The position numbers and the translations under genes were made by a program. Of a DNA stretch of 64,000 nt, positions 1-64,000 are shown one piece after another; positions within the stretch are counted from its first letter, which is position 1, and every line of letters begins with the position of its first letter. The DNA is from Eledone cirrhosa. Taxonomy: Eukaryota. The DNA lies in the NCBI GenBank assembly GCA_964016885.1, contig OZ024766.1:6262001-6326000 (forward strand), given 5' to 3'. Below the pieces are notes generated by a model. That model saw only the letters and a program-made list of their open reading frames with translations, was not told the DNA's origin and ran no database searches.

Positions 1-3000
1 TACATTACTCTATATATACTATTGTATTTTCACAGTAAAGGCTTTACCTCACATAATATCCCACATAACATTTACATTACTCTATATATACTATTGTATT
101 TTCACAGTAAAGGCTTTACTTCACATAATATCCCACATAACATTTACATTACTCTATATATACTATTGTATTTTCACAGTAAAGGCTTTACCCCACATAA
201 TATCTCACATAGCATTTACATTACTCTATATATACTATTGTATTGTCACAGTAAAGGCTTTACCTCACATAATATCTCACATAACATTTACATTACTCTA
301 TATATACTATTGTATTTTCACAGTAAAGGCTTTACCTCACATAATATCTCACATAGCATTTACATTACTCTATATATACTATTGTATTGTCACAGTAAAG
401 GCTTTACCTCACATAATACCTCACATAACATTTACATTACTCTATATATACTATTGTATTTTCACAGTAAAGGCTTTACCTCACATAATATCTCACATAA
501 CATTTACATTACTCTATATATACTATTGTATTGTCACAGTAAAGGCTTTACCTCACATAATATCTCACATAACATTTAAATTACTCTATATATACTATTG
601 TATTGTCACAGTAAAGGCTTTACCTCACATAATATCTCACATAACATTTACATTACTCTATATATACTATTGTATTGTCACAGTAAAGGCTTTACTTCAC
701 ATAATATCTCACATAACATTTACATTACTCTATATATACTATTGTATTTTCACAGTAAAGGCTTTACCTCACATAATATCTCACATAACATTTACATTAC
801 TCTATATATACTATTGTATTGTCACAGTAAAGGCTTTACCTCACATAATATCTCACATAACATTTACATTACTCTATATATACTATTGTATTGTCACAGT
901 AAAGGCTTTACTTCACATAATATCTCACATAACATTTACATTACTCTATATATACTATTGTATTTTCACAGTAAAGGCTTTACCTCACATAATATCTCAC
1001 ATAACATTTACATTACTCTATATATACTATTGTATTGTCACAGTAAAGGCTTTACCTCACATAATATCTCACATAACATTTACATTACTCTATATATACT
1101 ATTGTATTTTCACAGTAAAGGCTTTACCTCACATAATACCTCACATAACATTTACATTACTCTATATATACTATTGTATTGTCACAGTAAAGGCTTTACC
1201 TCACATAATATCTCACATAACATTTACATTACTCTATATATACTATTGTATTTTCACAGTAAAGGCTTTACCTCACATAATATCTCACATAACATTTACA
1301 TTACTCTATATATACTATTGTATTGTCACATTAAAGGCTTTACCTCACATAATATCTCACATACCATTTACATTACTCTATATATACTATTGTATTGTCA
1401 CAGTAAAGGCTTTACTTCACATAATATCTCACATAACATTTACATTACTCTATATATACTATTGTATTGTCACAGTAAAGGCTTTACCTCACATAATATC
1501 TCACATAACATTTACATTACTCTATATATACTATTGTATTGTCACAGTAAAGGCTTTACTTCACATAATATCTCACATAACATTTACATTACTCTATATA
1601 TACTATTGTATTTTCACAGTAAAGGCTTTACCTCACATAATATCTCACATAACATTTACATTACTCTATATATACTATTGTATTGTCACAGTAAAGGCTT
1701 TACCTCACATAATATCTCACATAACATTTAAATTACTCTATATATACTATTGTATTGTCACAGTAAAGGCTTTACCTCACATAATATCTCACATAACATT
1801 TACATTACTCTATATATACTATTGTATTGTCACAGTAAAGGCTTTACTTCACATAATATCTCACATAACATTTACATTACTCTATATATACTATTGTATT
1901 TTCACAGTAAAGGCTTTACCTCACATAATATCTCACATAACATTTACATTACTCTATATATACTATTGTATTGTCACAGTAAAGGCTTTACCTCACATAA
2001 TATCTCACATAACATTTACATTACTCTATATATACTATTGTATTGTCACAGTAAAGGCTTTACTTCACATAATATCTCACATAACATTTACATTACTCTA
2101 TATATACTATTGTATTTTCACAGTAAAGGCTTTACCTCACATAATATCTCACATAACATTTACATTACTCTATATATACTATTGTATTGTCACAGTAAAG
2201 GCTTTACCTCACATAATATCTCACATAACATTTACATTACTCTATATATACTATTGTATTTTCACAGTAAAGGCTTTACCTCACATAATACCTCACATAA
2301 CATTTACATTACTCTATATATACTATTGTATTGTCACAGTAAAGGCTTTACCTCACATAATATCTCACATAACATTTACATTACTCTATATATACTATTG
2401 TATTTTCACAGTAAAGGCTTTACCTCACATAATATCTCACATAACATTTACATTACTCTATATATACTATTGTATTGTCACATTAAAGGCTTTACCTCAC
2501 ATAATATCTCACATACCATTTACATTACTCTATATATACTATTGTATTGTCACAGTAAAGGCTTTACTTCACATAATATCTCACATAACATTTACATTAC
2601 TCTATATATACTATTGTATTTTCACAGTAAAGGCTTTACCTCACATAATACCTCACATAACATTTACATTACTCTATATATACTATTGTATTTTCACAGT
2701 AAAGTCTTTACCTTACATAATACCTCACATAGCATTTACATTACTCTATATATACTATTGTATTTTCACAGTAAAGGCTTTACCTCACATAATATCTCAC
2801 ATAACATTTACATTACTCTATATATACTATTGTATTTTCACAGTAAAGGCTTTACCTCACATAATATCTCACATAACATTTACATTACTCTATATATACT
2901 ATTGTATTTTCACAGTAAAGGCTTTACCTCACATAATATCTCACATAACATTTACATTACTCTATATATACTATTGTATTTTCACAGTAAAGGCTTTACC

Positions 3001-3090
3001 TCACATAATACCTCACATAACATTTACATTACTCTATATATACTATTGTATTTTCACAGTAAAGGCTTTACCTCACATAATTATCTCTCA
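1..3090 (+). repeat. 72-bp tandem array (~43 units, runs off the left edge) with an internal 1152-bp (16-mer) higher-order duplication
   Basis: Unit cattactctatatatactattgtattttcacagtaaaggctttacctcacataatatctcacataacattta. Rare variants recur 1152 bp apart (atttaaatt ~578/1730; cattaaagg ~1330/2482). The same unit lies inside the TIR element at 43463-44185. Confidence 0.97.
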
Positions 3091-6055: not shown

Positions 6056-6190
6056 GAGCCATCCGGGTCTCAACCCCTTACCCTGTGGTTGCCCTGCTCA
6101 TGATTGTCATTGCAGCCATCATCAGTATCATAGGGAACATAAGGGCTGACGTGAAAACCCTAATAGGGGCAATTATATATGTTTTCTCAG
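6056..6190 (+). CDS. CACNG5-like: Stargazin/TARP (voltage-dependent calcium channel gamma-5/7-like), penultimate coding exon (TM2-TM3)
   Basis: Acceptor tgttttgtttcag and donor G|gtaaaa, phase 1-1. Encodes AIRVSTPYPVVALLMIVIAAIISIIGNIRADVKTLIGAIIYVFSG, resembling vertebrate CACNG5 MIRSATPFPLVSL...GIFFILSG (recalled). Joins in frame to 16964. Confidence 0.9.
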
Positions 6191-46809: not shown

Positions 46810-49800
46810 TATACACCACTACACCACTACCACTACACCACTACCACTAGATCACCACCACCAAACCAGCCATGACACTCACTCACCACTACCACCACTA
46901 CCACCACTACACCACCACCACACCACCACTACCACTACACCATCACCACACCACCACTACCACTACACCACCACCACCAAACCAGCCATGACACTCACTC
47001 ACCACCACCACCGCACCACCATCACACCACCACCACTACCACTAAACCACCACCACTACACCACCACCACTACACTACCATGCCACTCACCATCCAATCT
47101 ATTCTTCCCAGAAACCCAGTCCCCTTCCACAACTACAACCAACATGTAGACACCACACCACCACCACTACACCACCACCACTACACCACCACCACTACAC
47201 CACCACCACTACACCACCACCACCAGCACCACCACTACACCACCATCAGCACCACCGCTACACCACCACACTACATCACTAAACCACCACACCGCCACCA
47301 CCACTACACCATCACCACCACCACTACACTACCATGCCACTCACCATCCAATCTATTCTTCCCAGAAACCCAGTCCCCTTCCACAACTACAACCAACATG
47401 TAGACACCACACCACCACCACTACACCACCACCACCAGCACCACCACTACACCACCACCAGCACCACCACTACACCACCACACTACATCACTAAACCACC
47501 ACACCGCCACAACCACCACCACCACCACACCACCACCACTACACTACCATGCCACTCACCATCCAATCTATTCTTCCCAGAAACCCAGTCCCCTTCCACA
47601 ACTACAACCAACATGTAGACACCACACCACCACCACTACACCACCACCACCAGCACCACCACTACACTACCACCAGCACCACCACTACACCACCACACTA
47701 CATCACTAAACCACTACACCGCCACAACCACCACCACCACCACACCACCACCACTACACTACCATGCCACTCACCATCCAATCTATTCTTCCCAGAAACC
47801 CAGTCCCCTTCCACAACTACAACCAACATGTAGACACCACACCACCACCACTACACCACCACCACCACCACACCACCACCACCACCACCACTACACCACT
47901 AAACCACCACACCGCCACAACCACCACCACACCACCACCACTACACTACCATGCCACTCACCATCCAATCTATTCTTCCCAGAAACCCAGTCCCCTTCCA
48001 CAACTACAACCAACATGTAGACACCACACCACCACCACTACACCACCACCACCAGCACCACCACTACACTACCACCAGCACCACCACTACACCACCACAC
48101 TACATCACTAAACCACTACACCGCCACAACCACCACCACCACCACACCACCACCACTACACTACCATGCCACTCACCATCCAATCTATTCTTCCCAGAAA
48201 CCCAGTCCCCTTCCACAACTACAACCAACATGTAGACACCACACCACCACCACTACACCACCACCACCACCACACCACCACCACCACCACCACTACACCA
48301 CTAAACCACCACACCGCCACAACCACCACCACACCACCACCACTACACTACCATGCCACTCACCATCCAATCTATTCTTCCCAGAAACCCAGTCCCCTTC
48401 CACAACTACAACCAACATGTAGACACCACACCACCACCACTACACCACCACCACCAGCACCACCACTACACCACCACCACACCACCACCACCACCACCAC
48501 CACCACACCACCACCACTACACCACCACCACTACACCACCACCACTACACCACCACCACCACCACCACACCACCACCACCACCACCACTGCACCACCACT
48601 ACACCACCACACTACATCACTAAACCACCACACCGCCACAACCACCACCACCACCACACCACCACCACTACACTACCATGCCACTCACCATCCAATCTAT
48701 TCTTCCCAGAAACCCAGTCCCCTTCCACAACTACAACCAACATGTAGACACCACACCACCACCACTACACCACCACCACCACCACCACCACTACACCACC
48801 ACCACTACACCACCACCACTACACCACCACACTACATCACACCACCACCACCACCACCACTACACCACCACCACTACACCACCACACTACATCACTAAAC
48901 CACCACACCGCCACAACCACCACCACCACCACACCACCACCACTACACTACCATGCCACTCACCATCCAATCTATTCTTCCCAGAAACCCAGTCCCCTTC
49001 CACAACTACAACCAACATGTAGACACCACACCACCACCACTACACCACCACCACCACCACCACACCACCACCACCACCACACCACTACACCACCACCACC
49101 ACCACCACTACACTACCATTGCCACTAATCCATCCATGCCACTCACCATCCAATCTATTCTTCCCAGAAACCCAGTCCCCTTCCACAACTACAACCAACA
49201 TGTAGACAGTGACCCTGCCGTCTGTGCTGCCATCAGTCGCTACACCACCACCACCACACCACTACACCACCACCACCACCACCACACCACCACCACCACC
49301 ACTACACCACCACCACTACCACTAATCCATCCATGCCACTCACCATCCAATCTATTCTTCCCAGAAACCCAGTCCCCTTCCACAACTACAACCAACATGT
49401 AGACACCACACCACCACCACTACACCACAACCACCACCACCACCACACCACCACCACTACACTACCATGCCACTCACCATCCAATCTATTCTTCCCAGAA
49501 ACCCAGTCCCCTTCACAACTACAACCAACATGTAGACACCACACCACCACCACCAGCACCACCACTACACCACCACACTACATCACTAAACCACCACACC
49601 GCCACAACCACCACCACCACCACACCACCACCACTACACTACCATGCCACTCACCATCCAATCTATTCTTCCCAGAAACCCAGTCCCCTTCCACAACTAC
49701 AACCAACATGTAGACACCACACCACCACCACTACACCACCACCACCACCACCACCACCACCACCACCACCACCACACCACCACTACCACTAATCCATCCA

Positions 49801-50014
49801 TGCCACTCACCATCCAATCTATTCTTCCCAGAAACCCAGTCCCCTTCCACAACTACAACCAACATGTAGACACCACACCACCACCACTACACCACCACCA
49901 CCACCACCACACCACCACCACCACCACACCACTACACCACCACCACCACCACCACTACACTACCATTGCCACTAATCCATCCATGCCACTCACCATCCAA
50001 TCTATTCTTCCCAG
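46810..50014 (+). repeat. CAC/CCA-rich array interleaved with 14 partial copies of the SLC38A9 acceptor plus exon start
   Basis: atgccactcaccatccaatctattcttcccag|aaacccagtcccc...atgtagaca at 47080, 47334, 47549, 47764, 47951, 48166, 48353, 48678, 48953, 49136, 49333, 49467, 49644 and 49800. The complete copy is at 49983. Confidence 0.93.
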
Positions 50015-50159
50015 AAACCCAGTCCCCTTCCACAACTACAACCAACATGTAGACAGTGACCCTGCCGTCTGTGCTGCCATCAGTCGCTACAAATACTACA
50101 AACACATCGAGAAGATCAACGCCACTCAATCGGATCATCCAAGTAGTCCATTGATCTTT
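50015..50159 (+). CDS. SLC38A9: SLC38A9 exon, N-terminal Rag-Ragulator-binding segment
   Basis: ttcttcccag|A ... TTT|gtaagt, phase 2-0. Encodes RNPVPFHNYNQHVDSDPAVCAAISRYKYYKHIEKINATQSDHPSSPLIF, comparable to human KRPF...ASAMNKRIHYYSRL. Confidence 0.85.
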
Positions 50160-50167
50160 GTAAGTAT

Positions 50168-51048
50168 TCCTTCTTTGCCTTCTTCGCCTTCTTTGCCTTC
50201 TTCGTCTTCTTCTTTGCCTTCTCTTTGCCTTCTTCTTTGCCTTCTTCTTCTTTGCCTTCTTCTTCTTTACCTTCTTCTTCTTTGCCTCCTTCTTTGTCTC
50301 CTTCTTTGCCTCCTTCTTTGCCTTCTTCTTTGCCTTCTTCTTCTTTGCCTTCTTCTTCTTTGCCTTCTTCTTCTTTGCCTTCTTCTTCTTCTTTGCCTCC
50401 TTCTTTTCCTTCTTCTTTGCCTCCTTCTTTGCCTTCTTCTTTGCCTTCTTCTTCTTTGCCTTCTTCTTCTTTGCCTCCTTCTTTTCCTTCTTCTTCTTTG
50501 CCTCCTTCTTTTCCTTCTTCTTTGCCTCCTTCTTTGCCTTCTTCTTTGCCTTCTTCTTCTTCTTTGCCTTCTTCTTCTTTGCCTTCTTCTTTGCCTTCTT
50601 CTTCTTTGCCTTCTTCTTCTTTGCCTTCTTCTTCTTCTTTGCCTTCTTCGTCTTTGCCTTCTTTGCCTTCTTCTTTGCCTTCTTCTTTGCCTTCTTCTTT
50701 GCCTTCTTTGCCTTCTTCTTCTTCTTCTTTGCCTTCTTCTTCTTCTTCTTCTTTGCCTTCTTCTTCTTCTTTGCCTTCTTCTTCTTCTTTGCCTTCTTCG
50801 TCTTCTTTGCCTTCTTCGTCTTCTTCTTTGCCTTCTTCTTTGCCTTCTTCGTCTTCTTTGCCTTCTTCGTCTTCTTCTTTGCCTTCTTCTTTGCCTCCTT
50901 CTTTGCCTTCTTCTTCTTCTTCTTTGCCTTCTTCTTCTTCTTTGCCTTCTTCTTCTTTGTCCTTCTTCTTCTTTGTCCTTCTTCTTCTTTGTCCTTCTTC
51001 TTCTTTGTCCTTCTTCTTCTTCATCTTCTTTTTCTTCATCTTCTTCTT
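50168..51048 (+). repeat. (CTT)n/TTTGCC polypyrimidine repeat continuous with the tail of a minus-strand RTE end (51045-51135)
   Basis: Direct inspection. Confidence 0.93.
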
Positions 51049-51207
51049 GAGAGGGTCGAGGGGTCAGAGCCCTCAAGTACTCATCCCAGAAGGTCCTGTC
51101 AGAAGCAATAGTCTGATGCTGACCTTTTGATATTGCCACCAACCTGGAAAAAAAGAGGTTGAAATAAAAAAAAAAAAAAAAATAAAAAGATTAGGGTTCA
51201 CATTACA

Positions 51208-52550
51208 TATTTCTTCTTCTTTGTCACCCACTTATTCCTGAGAGGGTCGTGGGGGGTCAAAGTCCTCAAACACTCCCTCCAGTGGGTCCTGTCAGAAACA
51301 AACGTCTCCAACTGATCTGGTTGGATCCCAAAGAGAGACCAGCCAAGCTCAGGGATGTTATCCAAACATCTTGCTCGGGGTCTACCCCTGGGTCTCCTGT
51401 CGGTTGGGTTTGCCTGTAAAATCTGTCCAGTGATTCTTTCCTGAGACATTCTAACCACATGTCTGTAGTATCAGAGCTGTGATCTCTCAATCCAGAGATT
51501 CTTTCCTGAGACATTCTAACCACATGTCCATAGTATCAGAGCTGTGATCTCTCAATTCAGAGATTCTTTCCTGAGACATTCTAACCACATGTCCATAGTA
51601 TTAGAGCTGTGATCTCTCTATTCAGAGATTCTTTCCTGAGACATTCTAACCACATGTCTGTAGTATCAGAGCTGTGATCTCTCAATTCAGAGATACTTTC
51701 CTGAGACATTCTAACCACATGTCTGTAGTATTAGAGCTGTGATCTCTCTATTCAGAGATTCTTTCCTGAGACATTCTAACCACATGTCTGTAGTATCAGA
51801 GCTGTGATCTCTCAATTCAGAGATTCTTTCCTGAGACATTCTAACCACATGTCTGTCGTATCAGAGCTGTGATCTCTCAATTCAGTGATTCTTTCCTGAG
51901 ACATTCTAACCACATGTCTGTAGTATCAGAGCTGTGATCTCTCAATTCAGAGATTCTATCCTCAGACATTCTAACCACATGTCTGTAGTATCAGAGCTGT
52001 GATCTCTCAATTCAGAGATACTTTCCTGAGACATTCTAACCTCATGTCCATAGTATTAGAGCTGTGATCTCTCTATTCAGAGATTCTTTCCTGAGACATT
52101 CTAACCACATGTCTGTAGTATCAGAGCTGTGATCTCTCAATTCAGAGATACTTTCCTGAGACATTCTAACCTCATGTCCATAGTATTAGAGCTGTGATCT
52201 CTCTATTCAGAGATTCTTTCCTGAGACATTCTAACCACATGTCTGTAGTATCAGAGCTGTGATCTCTCAATTCGGAGATACTTTCCTGAGACATTCTAAC
52301 CTCATGTCCATAGTATTAGAGCTGTGATCTCTCTCTTCAGAGATTCTTTCCTGAGACATTCTAACCACATGTCTGTAGTATCAGAGCTGTGATCTCTCAA
52401 TTCAGAGATTCTATCCTCAGACATTCTAACCACATGTCTGTAGTATCAGAGCTGTGATCTCTCAATTCAGAGATTCTTTCCTGAGACATTTTTGCTCAAG
52501 GTCTACCCCTGGGTCTCCTGCTGGTTCGTTTTGCTCGTAAAATCTGTCCT
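51208..52550 (-). mobile_element. RTE (Expander/Rex3-like) 3' end with a 63-bp coding segment amplified ~17x (51430-52490)
   Basis: HVVRMSQERITGQILQANPTDRRPRGRPRARCLDNI...W; the unit translates as IERSQL*YYRHVVRMSQERISE. Confidence 0.85.
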
Positions 52551-52621
52551 GTTGTTGCTGTTATTGTTGTTGTTGTTGTTTTTATGATTACTGTTGTTGT
52601 TGCTACTGTTTCTATCTGTAG

Positions 52622-52713
52622 ACTATGCCTGACCATGTCGTTCCACCACAGTTCATCACAATTGTCTCAATATCAAACACGGTCGAAGCAAAACAGGGCA
52701 GCCTTGTCACTAT
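52622..52713 (+). CDS. SLC38A9: SLC38A9 exon (PDHVVP motif to start of TM1)
   Basis: tctatctgtag|ACT ... AT|gtaagt, phase 0-2. Encodes TMPDHVVPPQFITIVSISNTVEAKQGSLVTI, versus human APDHVVP...KNTSLVTI. Absent from the ORF track. Confidence 0.93.
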
Positions 52714-52777
52714 GTAAGTAGGGTTTGATAAATACACATATTGTGAAGGTCCTGGGAGTGAGACAGAAGATATAATA

Positions 52778-53628
52778 GAGGCACATGGCTTAGTGGTTAG
52801 AGCATTGGCCTTGCAATCAAAAGGTTGTGAGTTCAATTCTCAGACCGGGTGATGTGTTGTTTCCTTGAGCAAGACACTTTATTTCACATTGCTCCAGTTT
52901 ACTCAGCTGTAGAAATGAGATGATAGGGACTGGGGTCCCTATCATTCCACTGCAAAGTGGTCGTGGAGGTGCCACGGCAAAAAAGCACCCAGCACTCACT
53001 GTAAATGAGGTTGGTGTTAGGAAGGGCATCCAGCTGTAGAAATGAGATGATAGGGACTGGGGTCCCTATCATTCCACTGCAAAGTGGTCGTGGAGGTGCC
53101 ACGGCAAAAAAGCACCCAGCACTCACTGTAAATGAGGTTGGTGTTAGGAAGGGCATCCAGCTGTAGAAATGAGATGATAGGGACTGGGGTCCCTATCATT
53201 CCACTGCAAAGTGGTCGTGGAGGTGCCACGGCAAAAAAGCACCCAGCACTCACTGTAAATGAGGTTGGTGTTAGGAAGGGCATCCAGCTATAGAAATGAG
53301 ATGATAGGGACTGGGGTCCCTATCATTCCACTGCAAAGTGGTCGTGGAGGTGCCACGGCAAAAAAGCACCCAGCACTCACTGTAAATGAGGTTGGTGTTA
53401 GGAAGGGCATCCAGCTGTAGAAATGAGATGATAGGGACTGGGGTCCCTATCATTCCACTGCAAAGTGGTCGTGGAGGTGCCACGGCAAAAAAGCACCCAG
53501 CACTCACTCACTGTAAATGAGGTTGGTGTTAGGAAGGGCATCCCGCTGTAGAAATCAAGCCAGAATCAGTTCCCATCCCACCCTTGCAAGCAGGGAAAAG
53601 CAGACGTAAAATGATGATGATGATGATT
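52778..53628 (+). mobile_element. tRNA-derived SINE (second family) with 5 x 127-bp internal repeat
   Basis: Head, array and RTE-type tail are all visible. Confidence 0.85.
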
Positions 53629-53662: not shown

Positions 53663-54555
53663 GGGCGGTGGATTGGCAGTATTGGGAGAGGGTCGGACGC
53701 CATGCTTTGATGTATAGAGTTACGGCCCTTGCCATTCTGATTTCAAATCCCGCCGAGGTTAACTTTGCCTTTCATCCTTACGGGGTCGATAAAATAAAGT
53801 ACCAGTAATGCACTGGGGTAATTGCTGGCCTTGTGCCAAAAGTAGAAACAATTACTACGGGGTTGATAAAATAAAGTACCAGTAATGCACTGGGGTAATT
53901 GCTGGCCTTGTGCCAAAAGTAGAAACAATTATTACGGGGTTGATAAAATAAAGTACCAGTAATGTACTGGGGTAATTGCTGGCCTTGTGCCAAAAGTAGA
54001 AACAATTATTACAGGGTTGATAAAATAAAGTACCAGTAATGCACTGGGGTAATTGCTGGCCTTGTGCCAAAAGTAGAAACAATTATTACAGGGTTGATAA
54101 AATAAAGTACCAGTAATGCACTGGGGTAATTGCTGGCCTTGTGCCAAAAGTAGAAACAATTACTACGGGGTTGATAAAATAAAGTACCAGTAATGTACTG
54201 GGGTAATTGCTGGCCTTGTGCCAAAAGTAGAAACAATTATTACGGGGTTGATAAAATAAAGTACCAGTAATGCACTGGGGTAATTGCTGGCCTTGTGCCA
54301 AAAGTAGAAACAATTATTACAGGGTTGATAAAAATAAAGTACCAGTAATACACTGGGGTAATTGCTGGCCTTGTGCCAAAAGTAGAAACAATTATTACGG
54401 GGTTGATAAAATAAAGTACCAGTAATGCACTGGGGTAATTGCTGGCCTTGTGCCCCCAGAAGTAGAAACAATTATTACGGGGTTGATAAAATAAAGTACC
54501 AGTAATGCACTGGGGTAATTGCTGGCCTTGTGCCCCCAGAAGTAGAAACAATTAT
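53663..54555 (+). mobile_element. Nin-type SINE with its 3' half amplified ~10x (77-80 bp)
   Basis: Intact head followed directly by the array. Confidence 0.88.
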
Positions 54556-55246
54556 TTTTTTTCAAATTTTTGTTTGTCAAAATTAGAGTTAGGGTTCTCG
54601 AGGACGAAGGGTCTTTGGCCCCGGGAAATATGGTATATATATATATACATATATATAAATGTATATATATTATATTATTTATCGCATATCAATTAATAGG
54701 CGGTGGATTGGCAGTATCGGCAGAGTCGGACACCCTGTTTTGCCGCATAGAGTTACGGCCCTTTACTGTCTGAGTTTTAAATCCCTGCCTTTCATCCTTA
54801 CAGGGTCGATAAAATAAAGTACCAGTAATGCACTGGGGTAATTGCTGGCTTTGTGCCAAAAGTAGAAACAATTATAATAGTTACGTCCCTTTATATTCTG
54901 AGTTAGAATCCCACCGAGGTTAACTTTGCCTTTCATCCTTACGGGGTCGATAAAATAAAGTACCAGCAACGCACTGGGGTCTATTTAATCGACCCCCCCC
55001 CCCAATTGCTGGCCTTGTGCCTGTACTAGAAACCATTACATATAAATTAATGATTTTATTTATTATATATTATTTACAATTTGTGTGTAGGTAGGTCCCT
55101 CTGGAAATAGGGCTTGGGGTCACTGAGGGTATTATGTGGCCCTGGGATGGGGAAGTGGCCCCAAAGAGTTTCAGAACCTCTGGTCTATCTCGACCATGCG
55201 ACAATGCTCTTCATACACAAACCTTTTACAATCTCTCTCTCTTTAG

Positions 55247-55310
55247 ATTCTCCTTATGGAACACTATGATGGGGACCTCAATACTGAGTATTCCCTGGGC
55301 CCTTAAAATG
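55247..55310 (+). CDS. SLC38A9: SLC38A9 exon (TM1)
   Basis: ctctttag|A ... ATG|gtaagt, phase 2-0. Encodes FSLWNTMMGTSILSIPWALKM, containing the signature WNTMMGTSILSIPW. Confidence 0.97.
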
Positions 55311-55432: not shown

Positions 55433-56607
55433 CCCTTTAACATTACTCTATATATACTATTGTATTTTCACAGTAAAGGCTTTACCTCACATAATACCTC
55501 ACATAACATTTACATTACTCTATATATACTATTGTATTTTCACAGTAAAGGCTTTACCTCACATAATATCTCACATAACATTTACATTACTCTGTATATA
55601 CTATTGTATTTTCACAGTAAAGGCTTTACCTCACATAATATCTCACATAACATTTACATTACTCTATATATACTATTGTATTGTCACAGTAAAGGCTTTA
55701 CCTCACATAATACCTCGCATAACATACTATTGTATTTTCACAGTAAAGGCTTTACCTCACATAATACCTCACATAACATTTACATTACTCTATATATACT
55801 ATTGTATTGTCACAGTAAAGGCTTTACCTCACATAATACCTCGCATAACATACTATTGTATTTTCACAGTAAAGGCTTTACCTCACATAATACCTCACAT
55901 AACATTTACATTACTCTATATATACTATTGTATTGTCACAGTAAAGGCTTTACCTCACATAATACCTCACATAACATTTACATTACTCTATATATACTAT
56001 TGTATTTTCACAGTAAAGGCTTTACCTCACATAATATCTCACATAACATTTACATTACTCTATATATACTATTGTATTTTCACAGTAAAGGCTTTACCTC
56101 ACATAATATCTCACATAACATTTACATTACTCTGTATATACTATTGTATTGTCACAGTAAAGACTTTACCTCACATAATATCTCACATAACATTTACATT
56201 ACTCTATATATACTATTGTATTTTCACAGTAAAGGCTTTACCTCACATAATATCTCACATAACATTTACATTACTCTATATATACTATTGTATTTTCACA
56301 GTAAAGGCTTTACCTCACATAATATCTCACATAACATCTACATTACTCTATATATACTATTGTATTTTCACAGTAAAGGCTTTACCTCACATAATATCTC
56401 ACATAACATCTACATTACTCTATATATACTATTGTATTTTCACAGTAAAGGCTTTACCTCACATAATATCTCACATAATATCGAAACTATGAGATTTTGA
56501 TATTATTTATTTTGAGACCAATACCTTAACATCAGTTTGAACGGCCAGTTACAGCCAGTTTCAACAGAGAGAGGTGAGAAAATTCTGGTCGGATACATCC
56601 AGTTTAA
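55433..56607 (+). mobile_element. piggyBac-type MITE copy with ~14-15 72-bp units; right TIR missing
   Basis: TTAA|CCCTTTA at 55429. The post-array sequence is the reverse complement of 43475-43600. Confidence 0.82.
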
Positions 56608-56852: not shown

Positions 56853-56946
56853 GCTGGTTTTGCCAATGGTATTGTACTACTTATTGTAATGGCAGCTTTG
56901 ATGTGCTATTCTGCTTACCGAATCATCTCCATCACACAGGGCATGG
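56853..56946 (+). CDS. SLC38A9: SLC38A9 exon (TM2)
   Basis: atctttcag|GCT ... G|gtgagt, phase 0-1. Encodes AGFANGIVLLIVMAALMCYSAYRIISITQGM, versus human [25 protein letters not shown]. Confidence 0.95.
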
Positions 56947-62799: not shown

Positions 62800-64000
62800 C
62801 TAGCTGGTCCATCCGGCTGGTGCCCGGCAAGGTATACCAGCATTTTATCTTTTCAGGAATCCCCCCCCCCCCTCCACTCCATTGCAAATATACTACACGC
62901 CCTCTCAAGTCAGCGAGGTGGGAGGGTGGTTAACGTGCTCTGATGTTGGGTTTGAATAGTTTTTAGGATTCCCCAGTTCAGCAGCCAGTATGTTAAAGAA
63001 AATTGAATTGGCAGTATCGGTAAAGGGTCGGACGCCATGCTTTGACGCATAGAGTTACGGCCCTTGCCATTCTGAGTTCAAATCCCGCCGAGGTTAACTT
63101 TGCCTTTCATCCTTACGGGGTCGATAAAATAAAGTACCAGTAATGCACTGGGATAATTGCTGGCCTTGTGCCAAAAGTAGAAACAATTATTATTATTATA
63201 TTTTATAAAATAAAGTACCAGTAATACACTTGGATAATTGCTGGCCTTGTGCCAAAAGTAGAAACAATTATTACAGGGTCGATAAAATAAAGTACCAGTA
63301 ATACACTGGGGTAATTGCTGGCCTTGTGCCCCCAAAGGTAGAAAGTTATTACGGGGTCGATAAAATAAAGTACCAGTAATACACTGGGGTAATTGTTGGC
63401 CTTGTGCCCCCAAAAGTAGAAAGTTATTACGGGGTCGATAAAATAAAGTACCAGTAATACACTGGGGTAATTGCTGGCCTTGTGCCTAAAGTAGAAACAG
63501 TTATTACGGGGTCGATAAAATAAAGTACCAGTAATACACTGGGGTAATTGATGGCCTTGTGCCAATAGTAGAAACAAGTATGTTAAAGGAAATTGATAGT
63601 TACAACAATAAAGGCTGAACAGAGAACACATGTTTTAACAAACAATAATTTGTACAACCATAATGGAAATTCCAAGTAACAGAAAATATTTAAATAACAT
63701 TGTTAGAGCCTCAGAGTATAAAATACTTTTGTTCGGCCCTCCAGAGCAAAGATGAAGAGATTGTTTGGCAAGCTCACCCTAGAGCATCCTACATACAATT
63801 GACCATGGGAGAATCACTGATTTCGTAGCTCGTCTCACGGAGATGCTCTGTAGACGTTGACTTCTGGACACTCCTGTTGTTCGGCCCTCCGGAGCAAAGA
63901 TGAAGAGATTGTTTGGCAAGCTCACCCTAGAGCATCCTACATCCAAAAGACCATGGGAGAATCACTGATTTCGTAGTTCGTCTCACGGAAACGCTCTGTA
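62800..64000 (-). mobile_element. Helitron 3' part: decayed RepHel PIF1-helicase C-terminus (duplicated 148 bp) and 3' terminus; interrupted by a Nin-SINE plus array (63005-63580)
   Basis: Minus strand FSHGQLYVGCSRVSLPNNLFIFALEGRTKSILYSEAL (~63700-63823, second copy 148 bp further). Terminus ccgg-gcaccag-ccgg...cagCTAG|t at 62800. Confidence 0.85.

Follow-up and report, generated by a model that had tools for sequence, protein, structure and literature searches.

Introduction

In amphioxus, arrays termed mirage minisatellites have been described in the globin genes BflGb6 and BflGb9, in Adh3, in troponin C and in PGBD5 (PMC3087553, PMC3902484). At BflGb6, the 3′ end of an intron and the following exon's 5′ part are repeated in tandem, in units of 150–160 bp that are present in 3 or 6 copies depending on the haplotype, and RT-PCR results were suggestive of normal splicing (PMC3087553); the Adh and troponin C mirages are reported to yield no aberrant mRNA (PMC3902484). 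Human genes carry minisatellites that repeat a donor site, in F7 intron 7 (37 bp, 5–9 copies), 6-16 intron 2, CBS intron 13, lamin B2 and PDGF intron 4. The authentic site alone is used in three of these five, F7 included, with two further pseudo-sites used in 6-16 and CBS intron 13 (PMC1557585). A related duplication is the CBS variant c.844_845ins68, in which 52 nt of intron end and 16 nt of exon start are duplicated together with the 3′ splice site (PMC7490669; also PMC2630376) and in which splicing uses the downstream copy and removes the upstream one (PMC7490669). Our literature search, to which most subscription papers were closed, found no mirage or other splice-boundary array in a cephalopod. 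Among regulatory VNTRs, the one in ABCA7 reportedly changes splicing.

Here we describe an array of splice acceptors in DNA from Eledone cirrhosa. The window analysed is a stretch of 64,000 nucleotides (contig OZ024766.1, positions 6,262,001 to 6,326,000), and all coordinates below refer to it. We consider it probable that the array is a mirage minisatellite with a likely origin in slippage within a CAC microsatellite, and that its 14 extra acceptors are likely skipped, so that the array is tolerated and not used.

Results

Fifteen copies of one acceptor precede a single donor

A 75-nt unit occurs 15 times on the forward strand between 47078 and 50055, separated by spacers that are mostly of CAC type. 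Each unit joins 34 nt of intron end, the AG included, to the 41 nt with which the next exon begins, in agreement with the original prediction of about 32 nt before the AG and about 41 nt of exon in 15 copies; the intron part consists of a pyrimidine tract with CAG at its end. The repeat region is made up as follows.

46812..47077, forward strand: CAC-type microsatellite tract leading into the array, likely the host repeat (from the sequence)
47078..50055, forward strand: compound minisatellite with 14 decoy acceptors plus the true one, spacers of 59–250 nt (from sequence repeat analysis, and from run contigs, by their decoy form and their depth ratios)

The exon parts of the copies start at 47112, 47366, 47581, 47796, 47983, 48198, 48385, 48710, 48985, 49168, 49365, 49499, 49676, 49832 and 50015. 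Fourteen of the 15 units are the same over all 75 nt, the exception being the 49499 unit, which has a 1-nt deletion 16 nt into its exon part. The same 16-nt acceptor is kept in every copy, and the claim that the spliceosome would have to pass 14 identical acceptors is supported. All decoys except one end after exon base 41 (13 of 14), and the remaining one, at 49168, extends to base 77. As had been foreseen, only the last copy reaches the full exon and its GTAAGT donor (50160), which places the true site at the edge of the array. Within the leading tract, two copies of a short non-CAC word (46860–46890 and 46978–47005) look like the beginning of the intron part of the unit, of which they may be older copies that have decayed.

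We searched the window with probes for the boundaries of nine exons (n = 18, three of which were off by one or not true splice sites). The array acceptor alone gave more than one match, with 15, and no echo of any other exon boundary was found in the window among the 18 probes. The repeated acceptor is not due to chance. A search for inverted repeats found no pairs, and an Rfam search of 44000–53000 gave no match.

The array lies within an intron of SLC38A9

A search with the exon that follows the array, exon D, returned one relative, P0001, which is 85% identical. The cluster of P0001 includes Octopus members named SLC38A9 or SNAT9 (RefSeq ‘sodium-coupled neutral amino acid transporter 9’), and P0001 matched zebrafish SLC38A9 (7KGV) with an E value of 3.7e-110. 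PDB matches at E 0.001 were to SLC38A9 chains only (zebrafish 7KGV, 6C08), and PF01490 (Aa_trans) was found on a second relative, P0006. Exon D by itself retrieved no SLC38A9 chain from the PDB, where it had one chance match (E 2.2), and no family from Pfam. We assembled a seven-exon model that uses acceptor 50015 only; it has an open frame and AG–GT introns, and 151 of 180 residues are identical to P0001 (84%), with one 1-residue gap. By homology, the host gene is the octopod SLC38A9, as had been proposed. Its exons in the window are the following.

38181..38371, forward strand: exon A, coding part from the ATG (14/17 identical to P0006)
41452..41517, forward strand: exon B (seven-exon model)
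44204..44278, forward strand: exon C, 75 nt, with donor 44279 (12/23 identical to O. vulgaris P0006, E 5e-7)
50015..50159, forward strand: exon D, the true exon, 145 nt, followed by the GTAAGT donor 50160; part of the N-terminal tail (homology, seven-exon model)
52622..52713, forward strand: exon E, encoding the PDH (N-plug) motif (seven-exon model, homology)
55247..55310, forward strand: exon F (seven-exon model)
56853..56946, forward strand: exon G (seven-exon model)

Beyond exon G no further SLC38A9 exon was found in the window, which holds the first seven coding exons only. The donors at 41517 and 38371, originally thought to be those spliced to the array, proved to be the wrong ones: exon C had been missed, and the donor is the one at 44279. 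Because exon C is backed by homology, the array sits in a 5.7-kb intron starting at 44279.

In human SLC38A9, residues 39–97 are described as binding Rag GTPases, with Ile68, Tyr71 and Leu74 required (10.1101/2020.07.28.225524); the PDH motif at residues 85–87 is likewise described as binding Rag GTPases (PMC9994763). Exon D aligns with zebrafish SLC38A9 from residue 56 on. At an inferred offset of 11 from PDH, where the alignment is weak, the equivalents of human Ile68, Tyr71 and Leu74 in exon D would be Tyr, Tyr and Ile. The PDH motif is kept as well, but in exon E. The name ‘Rag-binding exon’ first given to exon D therefore suits the equivalents of the helix residues, subject to that weak alignment, and not the PDH motif, and it is in part supported that exon D encodes a portion of the putative Rag-binding tail of octopod SLC38A9. 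The RefSeq SLC38A9 models P0003, P0004 and P0005, from two Octopus species, begin at the PDH-bearing exon and are without the N-terminal tail, which P0001, P0006 and the window encode.

Sequencing reads contain the decoy form

Identity among 14 of the 15 units could point to an assembly artefact, in which one acceptor was expanded when a low-complexity tract was mis-assembled, and the original prediction had named a single copy in the raw reads as the sign of such an error. A search of public runs with words from the array placed three runs of one sample (X1, X2 and X3) at the top, with 47–52% of 115 words; runs X4–X22, with 6–31% of the sampled words, were set aside as low-complexity matches. 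The RNA data that this search returned were metatranscriptomes, each with a small share of the words. X1–X3 and one RAD-seq run from another individual (X23) were compared on a 218-base single-copy stretch, where X23 had no reads. In contigs of X1, X2 and X3, the unit is joined to decoy-type flanks on both sides.

Five X1 contigs, placed on the window by coordinates and loose ends, had depths of 16, 32, 107.1, 90.2 and 12.2, and their mean 31-mer multiplicities in the window were 2, 4, 13.6, 10.4 and 1.46. Depth per copy was accordingly 8.0, 8.0, 7.9, 8.6 and 8.4 (range 7.9–8.6), scaling with the assembled copy numbers, depth being a proxy and strictly not a copy number, and the sample possibly the one that was assembled. 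These depths fit about 15 copies in the reads. Words present in two and four copies stood at 1:2 in X1, against the 3:5 expected if an array-free allele shared the flank, so the sampled animal seems to lack an array-free allele. The contigs of the runs neither span the whole array nor cover 50056–50159, and this, with the possible identity of sample and assembly, is what remains on the side of an artefact. Given the two-sided decoy flanks in all three runs, the even depth per copy and spacers that differ in a structured way, we regard an artefact as barely credible. The array is a real feature of the DNA, and it has the structure that defines a mirage minisatellite.

We also scanned metagenomes (33 of 64 parts) and obtained at least one locus, L001, an intron-less, GC-rich and repeat-free gene that was rejected as a chance match.

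Microhomology and block duplication mark the spacers

Three pairs of spacers within the array are identical, and longer exact repeats extend across units. One is a block of 552 nt at offset 402; a second, of 294 nt, lies at offset 847. An exact match therefore exists at the 847-bp offset at which a duplication had been reported, but it covers only 294 nt (48951–49244 = 49798–50091) and is shorter than the block at offset 402.

48951..49244, forward strand: exact 294-nt duplicate of 49798–50091, including the 49168 decoy with 77 nt of exon (sequence comparison)

The 552-nt and 294-nt blocks indicate that several units were copied together, and the presence in the 294-nt block of the decoy with 77 nt of exon indicates that capture of the boundary involved two or more break points. 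At each of these, after exon bases 41 and 77, the copied stretch finishes with ACA or CTACA. Counts of the two words within 46812–50014 are 192 and 85, respectively; copies do break off at microhomologies with the spacer, as had been noticed earlier. The first 41 exon bases are themselves 78% C+A.

The surrounding window is rich in repeats. Tandem repeats make up 70.6% of it, with 32 merged arrays of period at least 15. Eight of nine exons are free of repeat bases, and repeats lie within 50 nt of seven of nine exon starts. This background makes a neutral origin of the array likely. A CTT-rich compound microsatellite occupies 50170–51048, starting 10 nt after the exon D donor, so repeats lie close to exon D on either side.

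Other repeats in the window were recorded in passing. One unit of 77–81 nt is amplified in tandem at 36540–38137, 45053–46484, 53778–54556 and 63113–63581, and one of 72 nt at 1–3087, 43604–44177 and 55440–56478; both units are apparently parts of dispersed repeats. At 34085–34726, a 48-nt near-perfect palindrome has a right arm that runs into a 22-nt array of 27.7 copies, each unit of which contains a donor-like GGTAAG, with no exon linked to it. A scaffold gap of 200 N (31718–31917) lies 15 kb upstream of the acceptor array. On the forward strand, 6057–6190 and 16965–17269 are the last two exons of an upstream gene with hydrophobic segments and a match to PMP22/claudin that is weak and does not reach the Pfam cut-off (E 0.023); the intron between them contains an 8-kb array of a 96-nt unit in 86.6 copies.

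Only the last acceptor has a donor at normal exon distance

We scored every GT within the array against a 9-position donor consensus, by which the best reached 5/9 and real donors 6–8/9. The last copy is the only one with a donor inside the normal length of an exon. Measured to the donor at 50160, the predicted exons are 145 nt for the true acceptor, 328 and 484 nt for the two nearest decoys and 661–3048 nt for the rest, and within 600 nt of the distant decoys there is no donor. In vertebrates, exon definition has a limit of about 300 nt, a figure that may not hold in cephalopods. The open frame of the seven-exon model with acceptor 50015 only, together with the lack of any array donor above 5/9, supports skipping of the decoys.

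The internal GTs bear on another proposal, that the array is a snapshot of exon duplication or intron gain in progress, in which a decoy exon head would turn into an exon through an internal GT. Mirages have been put forward as a route to new introns (PMC3087553), and every unit does have a GT at exon base 33. This GT scores 5/9, without the G at +5 and the T at +6, and the true exon has it as well, with read-through there shown by homology. A tandem exon duplication has a complete copy with acceptor and donor; here the longest copy covers 77 of 145 nt, donors reach at most 5/9, and no copy has a whole exon or a real donor. The proposal fits poorly, and we judge it highly unlikely.

The original prediction had added that most wrong choices hit stops, and the exact figure is 12 of 14: these decoys lead to a premature stop at least 449 nt before the donor at 50160. 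The two that do not are the two nearest, 49832 and 49676, which are in frame and free of stops through to the donor.

49832..50014, forward strand: nearest decoy block; with acceptor 49832 the exon would be 328 nt long and in frame, adding 61 residues rich in His, Thr and Pro (computed)
49676..49831, forward strand: second-nearest decoy block; with acceptor 49676 the exon would be 484 nt long and in frame, adding 113 residues (computed)
49972..49976, forward strand: CTAAT motif resembling a branch point, 40 nt upstream of the true acceptor (sequence motif)

The predicted additions of 61 and 113 residues, both rich in His, Thr and Pro, contain a repeated 13-residue motif and poly-His runs. The CTAAT motif is found at −40 in four of the 15 copies (49168, 49365, 49832 and 50015) and is missing from 11; the three decoys that retain it also keep 46 nt or more of the intron unchanged. 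All 15 have in common a weaker CTCAC at −23. Upstream of the true acceptor, 49955–49999 holds a 17-nt tandem near-duplication, and 11 decoys lack 18 nt there, CTAAT included. Masking of the decoys by RNA structure was considered and rejected, as folding gave z scores of 0.19 and −0.28 and thus no unusual structure in the RNA.

The observed pattern, with the two nearest decoys as the only ones in frame, would fit selection on leaky use, and this argues against full skipping. So do the three decoys that keep CTAAT, the lack of masking in the folding analysis and the use of pseudo-sites in two of five human donor arrays. One may then suppose that the array had a neutral origin but that one or both of the nearest decoys are used to a measurable extent, adding 61 or 113 residues, with purifying selection keeping the adjoining blocks frame-preserving. 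In favour of such use, the exon from 49832 would be 328 nt, with CTAAT kept; in the human arrays, 6-16 is reported to use the nearest pseudo-sites, 6-16 uses the nearest pseudo-sites and CBS intron 13 uses two (PMC1557585). When the order of the 14 blocks was shuffled (20,000 trials), the nearest two were the in-frame ones in 3.4% of trials (P = 0.034), and with the 11 distinct blocks in 1.7% (P = 0.017), values to be read with the test having been picked after the pattern was seen and with the blocks related by duplication. A 75-nt unit and CAC triplets moreover favour multiples of three, a third stop-free and frame-neutral block (48985) lies in mid-array, and the octopus relatives P0001, P0006 and P0007, from other species, have no such insertion. 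On balance we find measurable use of the near decoys unlikely, although it is the strongest of the rivals to skipping.

The prevalence of stops also bears on the suggestion that the array is an adaptive rheostat, whose copy number would set the share of transcripts lost to nonsense-mediated decay (NMD) and thereby tune amino-acid sensing by mTORC1. In its favour, 12 of 14 decoys lead to stops, and the exon encodes part of a tail whose human counterpart, residues 39–97, is reported to bind Rag GTPases (10.1101/2020.07.28.225524). Stops, however, are expected in intronic or out-of-frame sequence, and the decoys far from the exon lack a donor within 600 nt. The window has 32 merged minisatellite arrays, this one included, and tandem repeats fill 71% of it; similar arrays in unrelated amphioxus genes, like the one in F7, are reported not to disturb splicing (PMC3087553, PMC3902484, PMC1557585). 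The suggestion is unsupported, and we hold it to be extremely doubtful. A combined version, in which the two nearest decoys are real acceptors inserting 61 or 113 residues into the putative Rag-binding tail, the distant ones feed NMD, the order and number of blocks set the amount and form of the lysosomal amino-acid sensor, and selection on frame shapes the array, appears very unlikely.

Discussion

The reading we prefer remains that of a mirage minisatellite whose decoys are passed over. The acceptor would first have stood at the edge of a CAC-type microsatellite, before a C+A-rich exon start, and misalignment at ACA or CTACA microhomologies would have placed copies of the boundary in the tract on two or more occasions, with break points after exon bases 41 and 77. 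Unequal exchange may then have multiplied blocks of one or several units. If commitment of an acceptor requires pairing with a donor over the span of a short exon, the sole usable donor, at 50160, would lead to the choice of the last acceptor, 145 nt away; 11 of the decoys also have no branch-like CTAAT. Occasional mis-splicing to one of the 12 distant decoys would yield premature stops, and the resulting transcripts would likely be removed by nonsense-mediated decay.

On this most likely reading, mirage minisatellites extend to cephalopods. The locus also offers a natural test of acceptor choice, with 15 identical acceptors set apart only by how far they lie from the donor and by one branch-like motif, and it carries a warning for annotation, as such arrays can hide or extend exons. 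Should splicing turn out to employ the two in-frame decoys, a regulator of mTORC1 would be having its signalling tail altered by a repeat, and selection acting on a mirage would be evident from the order of the blocks.

Like the amphioxus mirages, the octopod array repeats an intron 3′ end and an exon 5′ part in tandem, with AG signals and with the authentic site at the array edge. It differs in having 15 copies, in units that are identical where those of amphioxus are 81–100% alike, and in setting a fixed 75-nt unit within CAC microsatellite spacers that vary. Reports on amphioxus describe both undisturbed splicing and polymorphism in length. With the human donor-site minisatellites it shares the reiteration of identical splice sites into an intron, and in those arrays splicing relies mainly or solely on the site closest to the exon body. 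The human arrays repeat a donor and extend downstream, in simple units without microsatellite spacers, whereas the octopod array repeats an acceptor and extends upstream. CBS c.844_845ins68 is similar in that an intron end and an exon start are duplicated together with the acceptor. That variant is a single extra copy outside a microsatellite, with a known RNA outcome; the octopod array has 14 extra copies, set in a CAC microsatellite.
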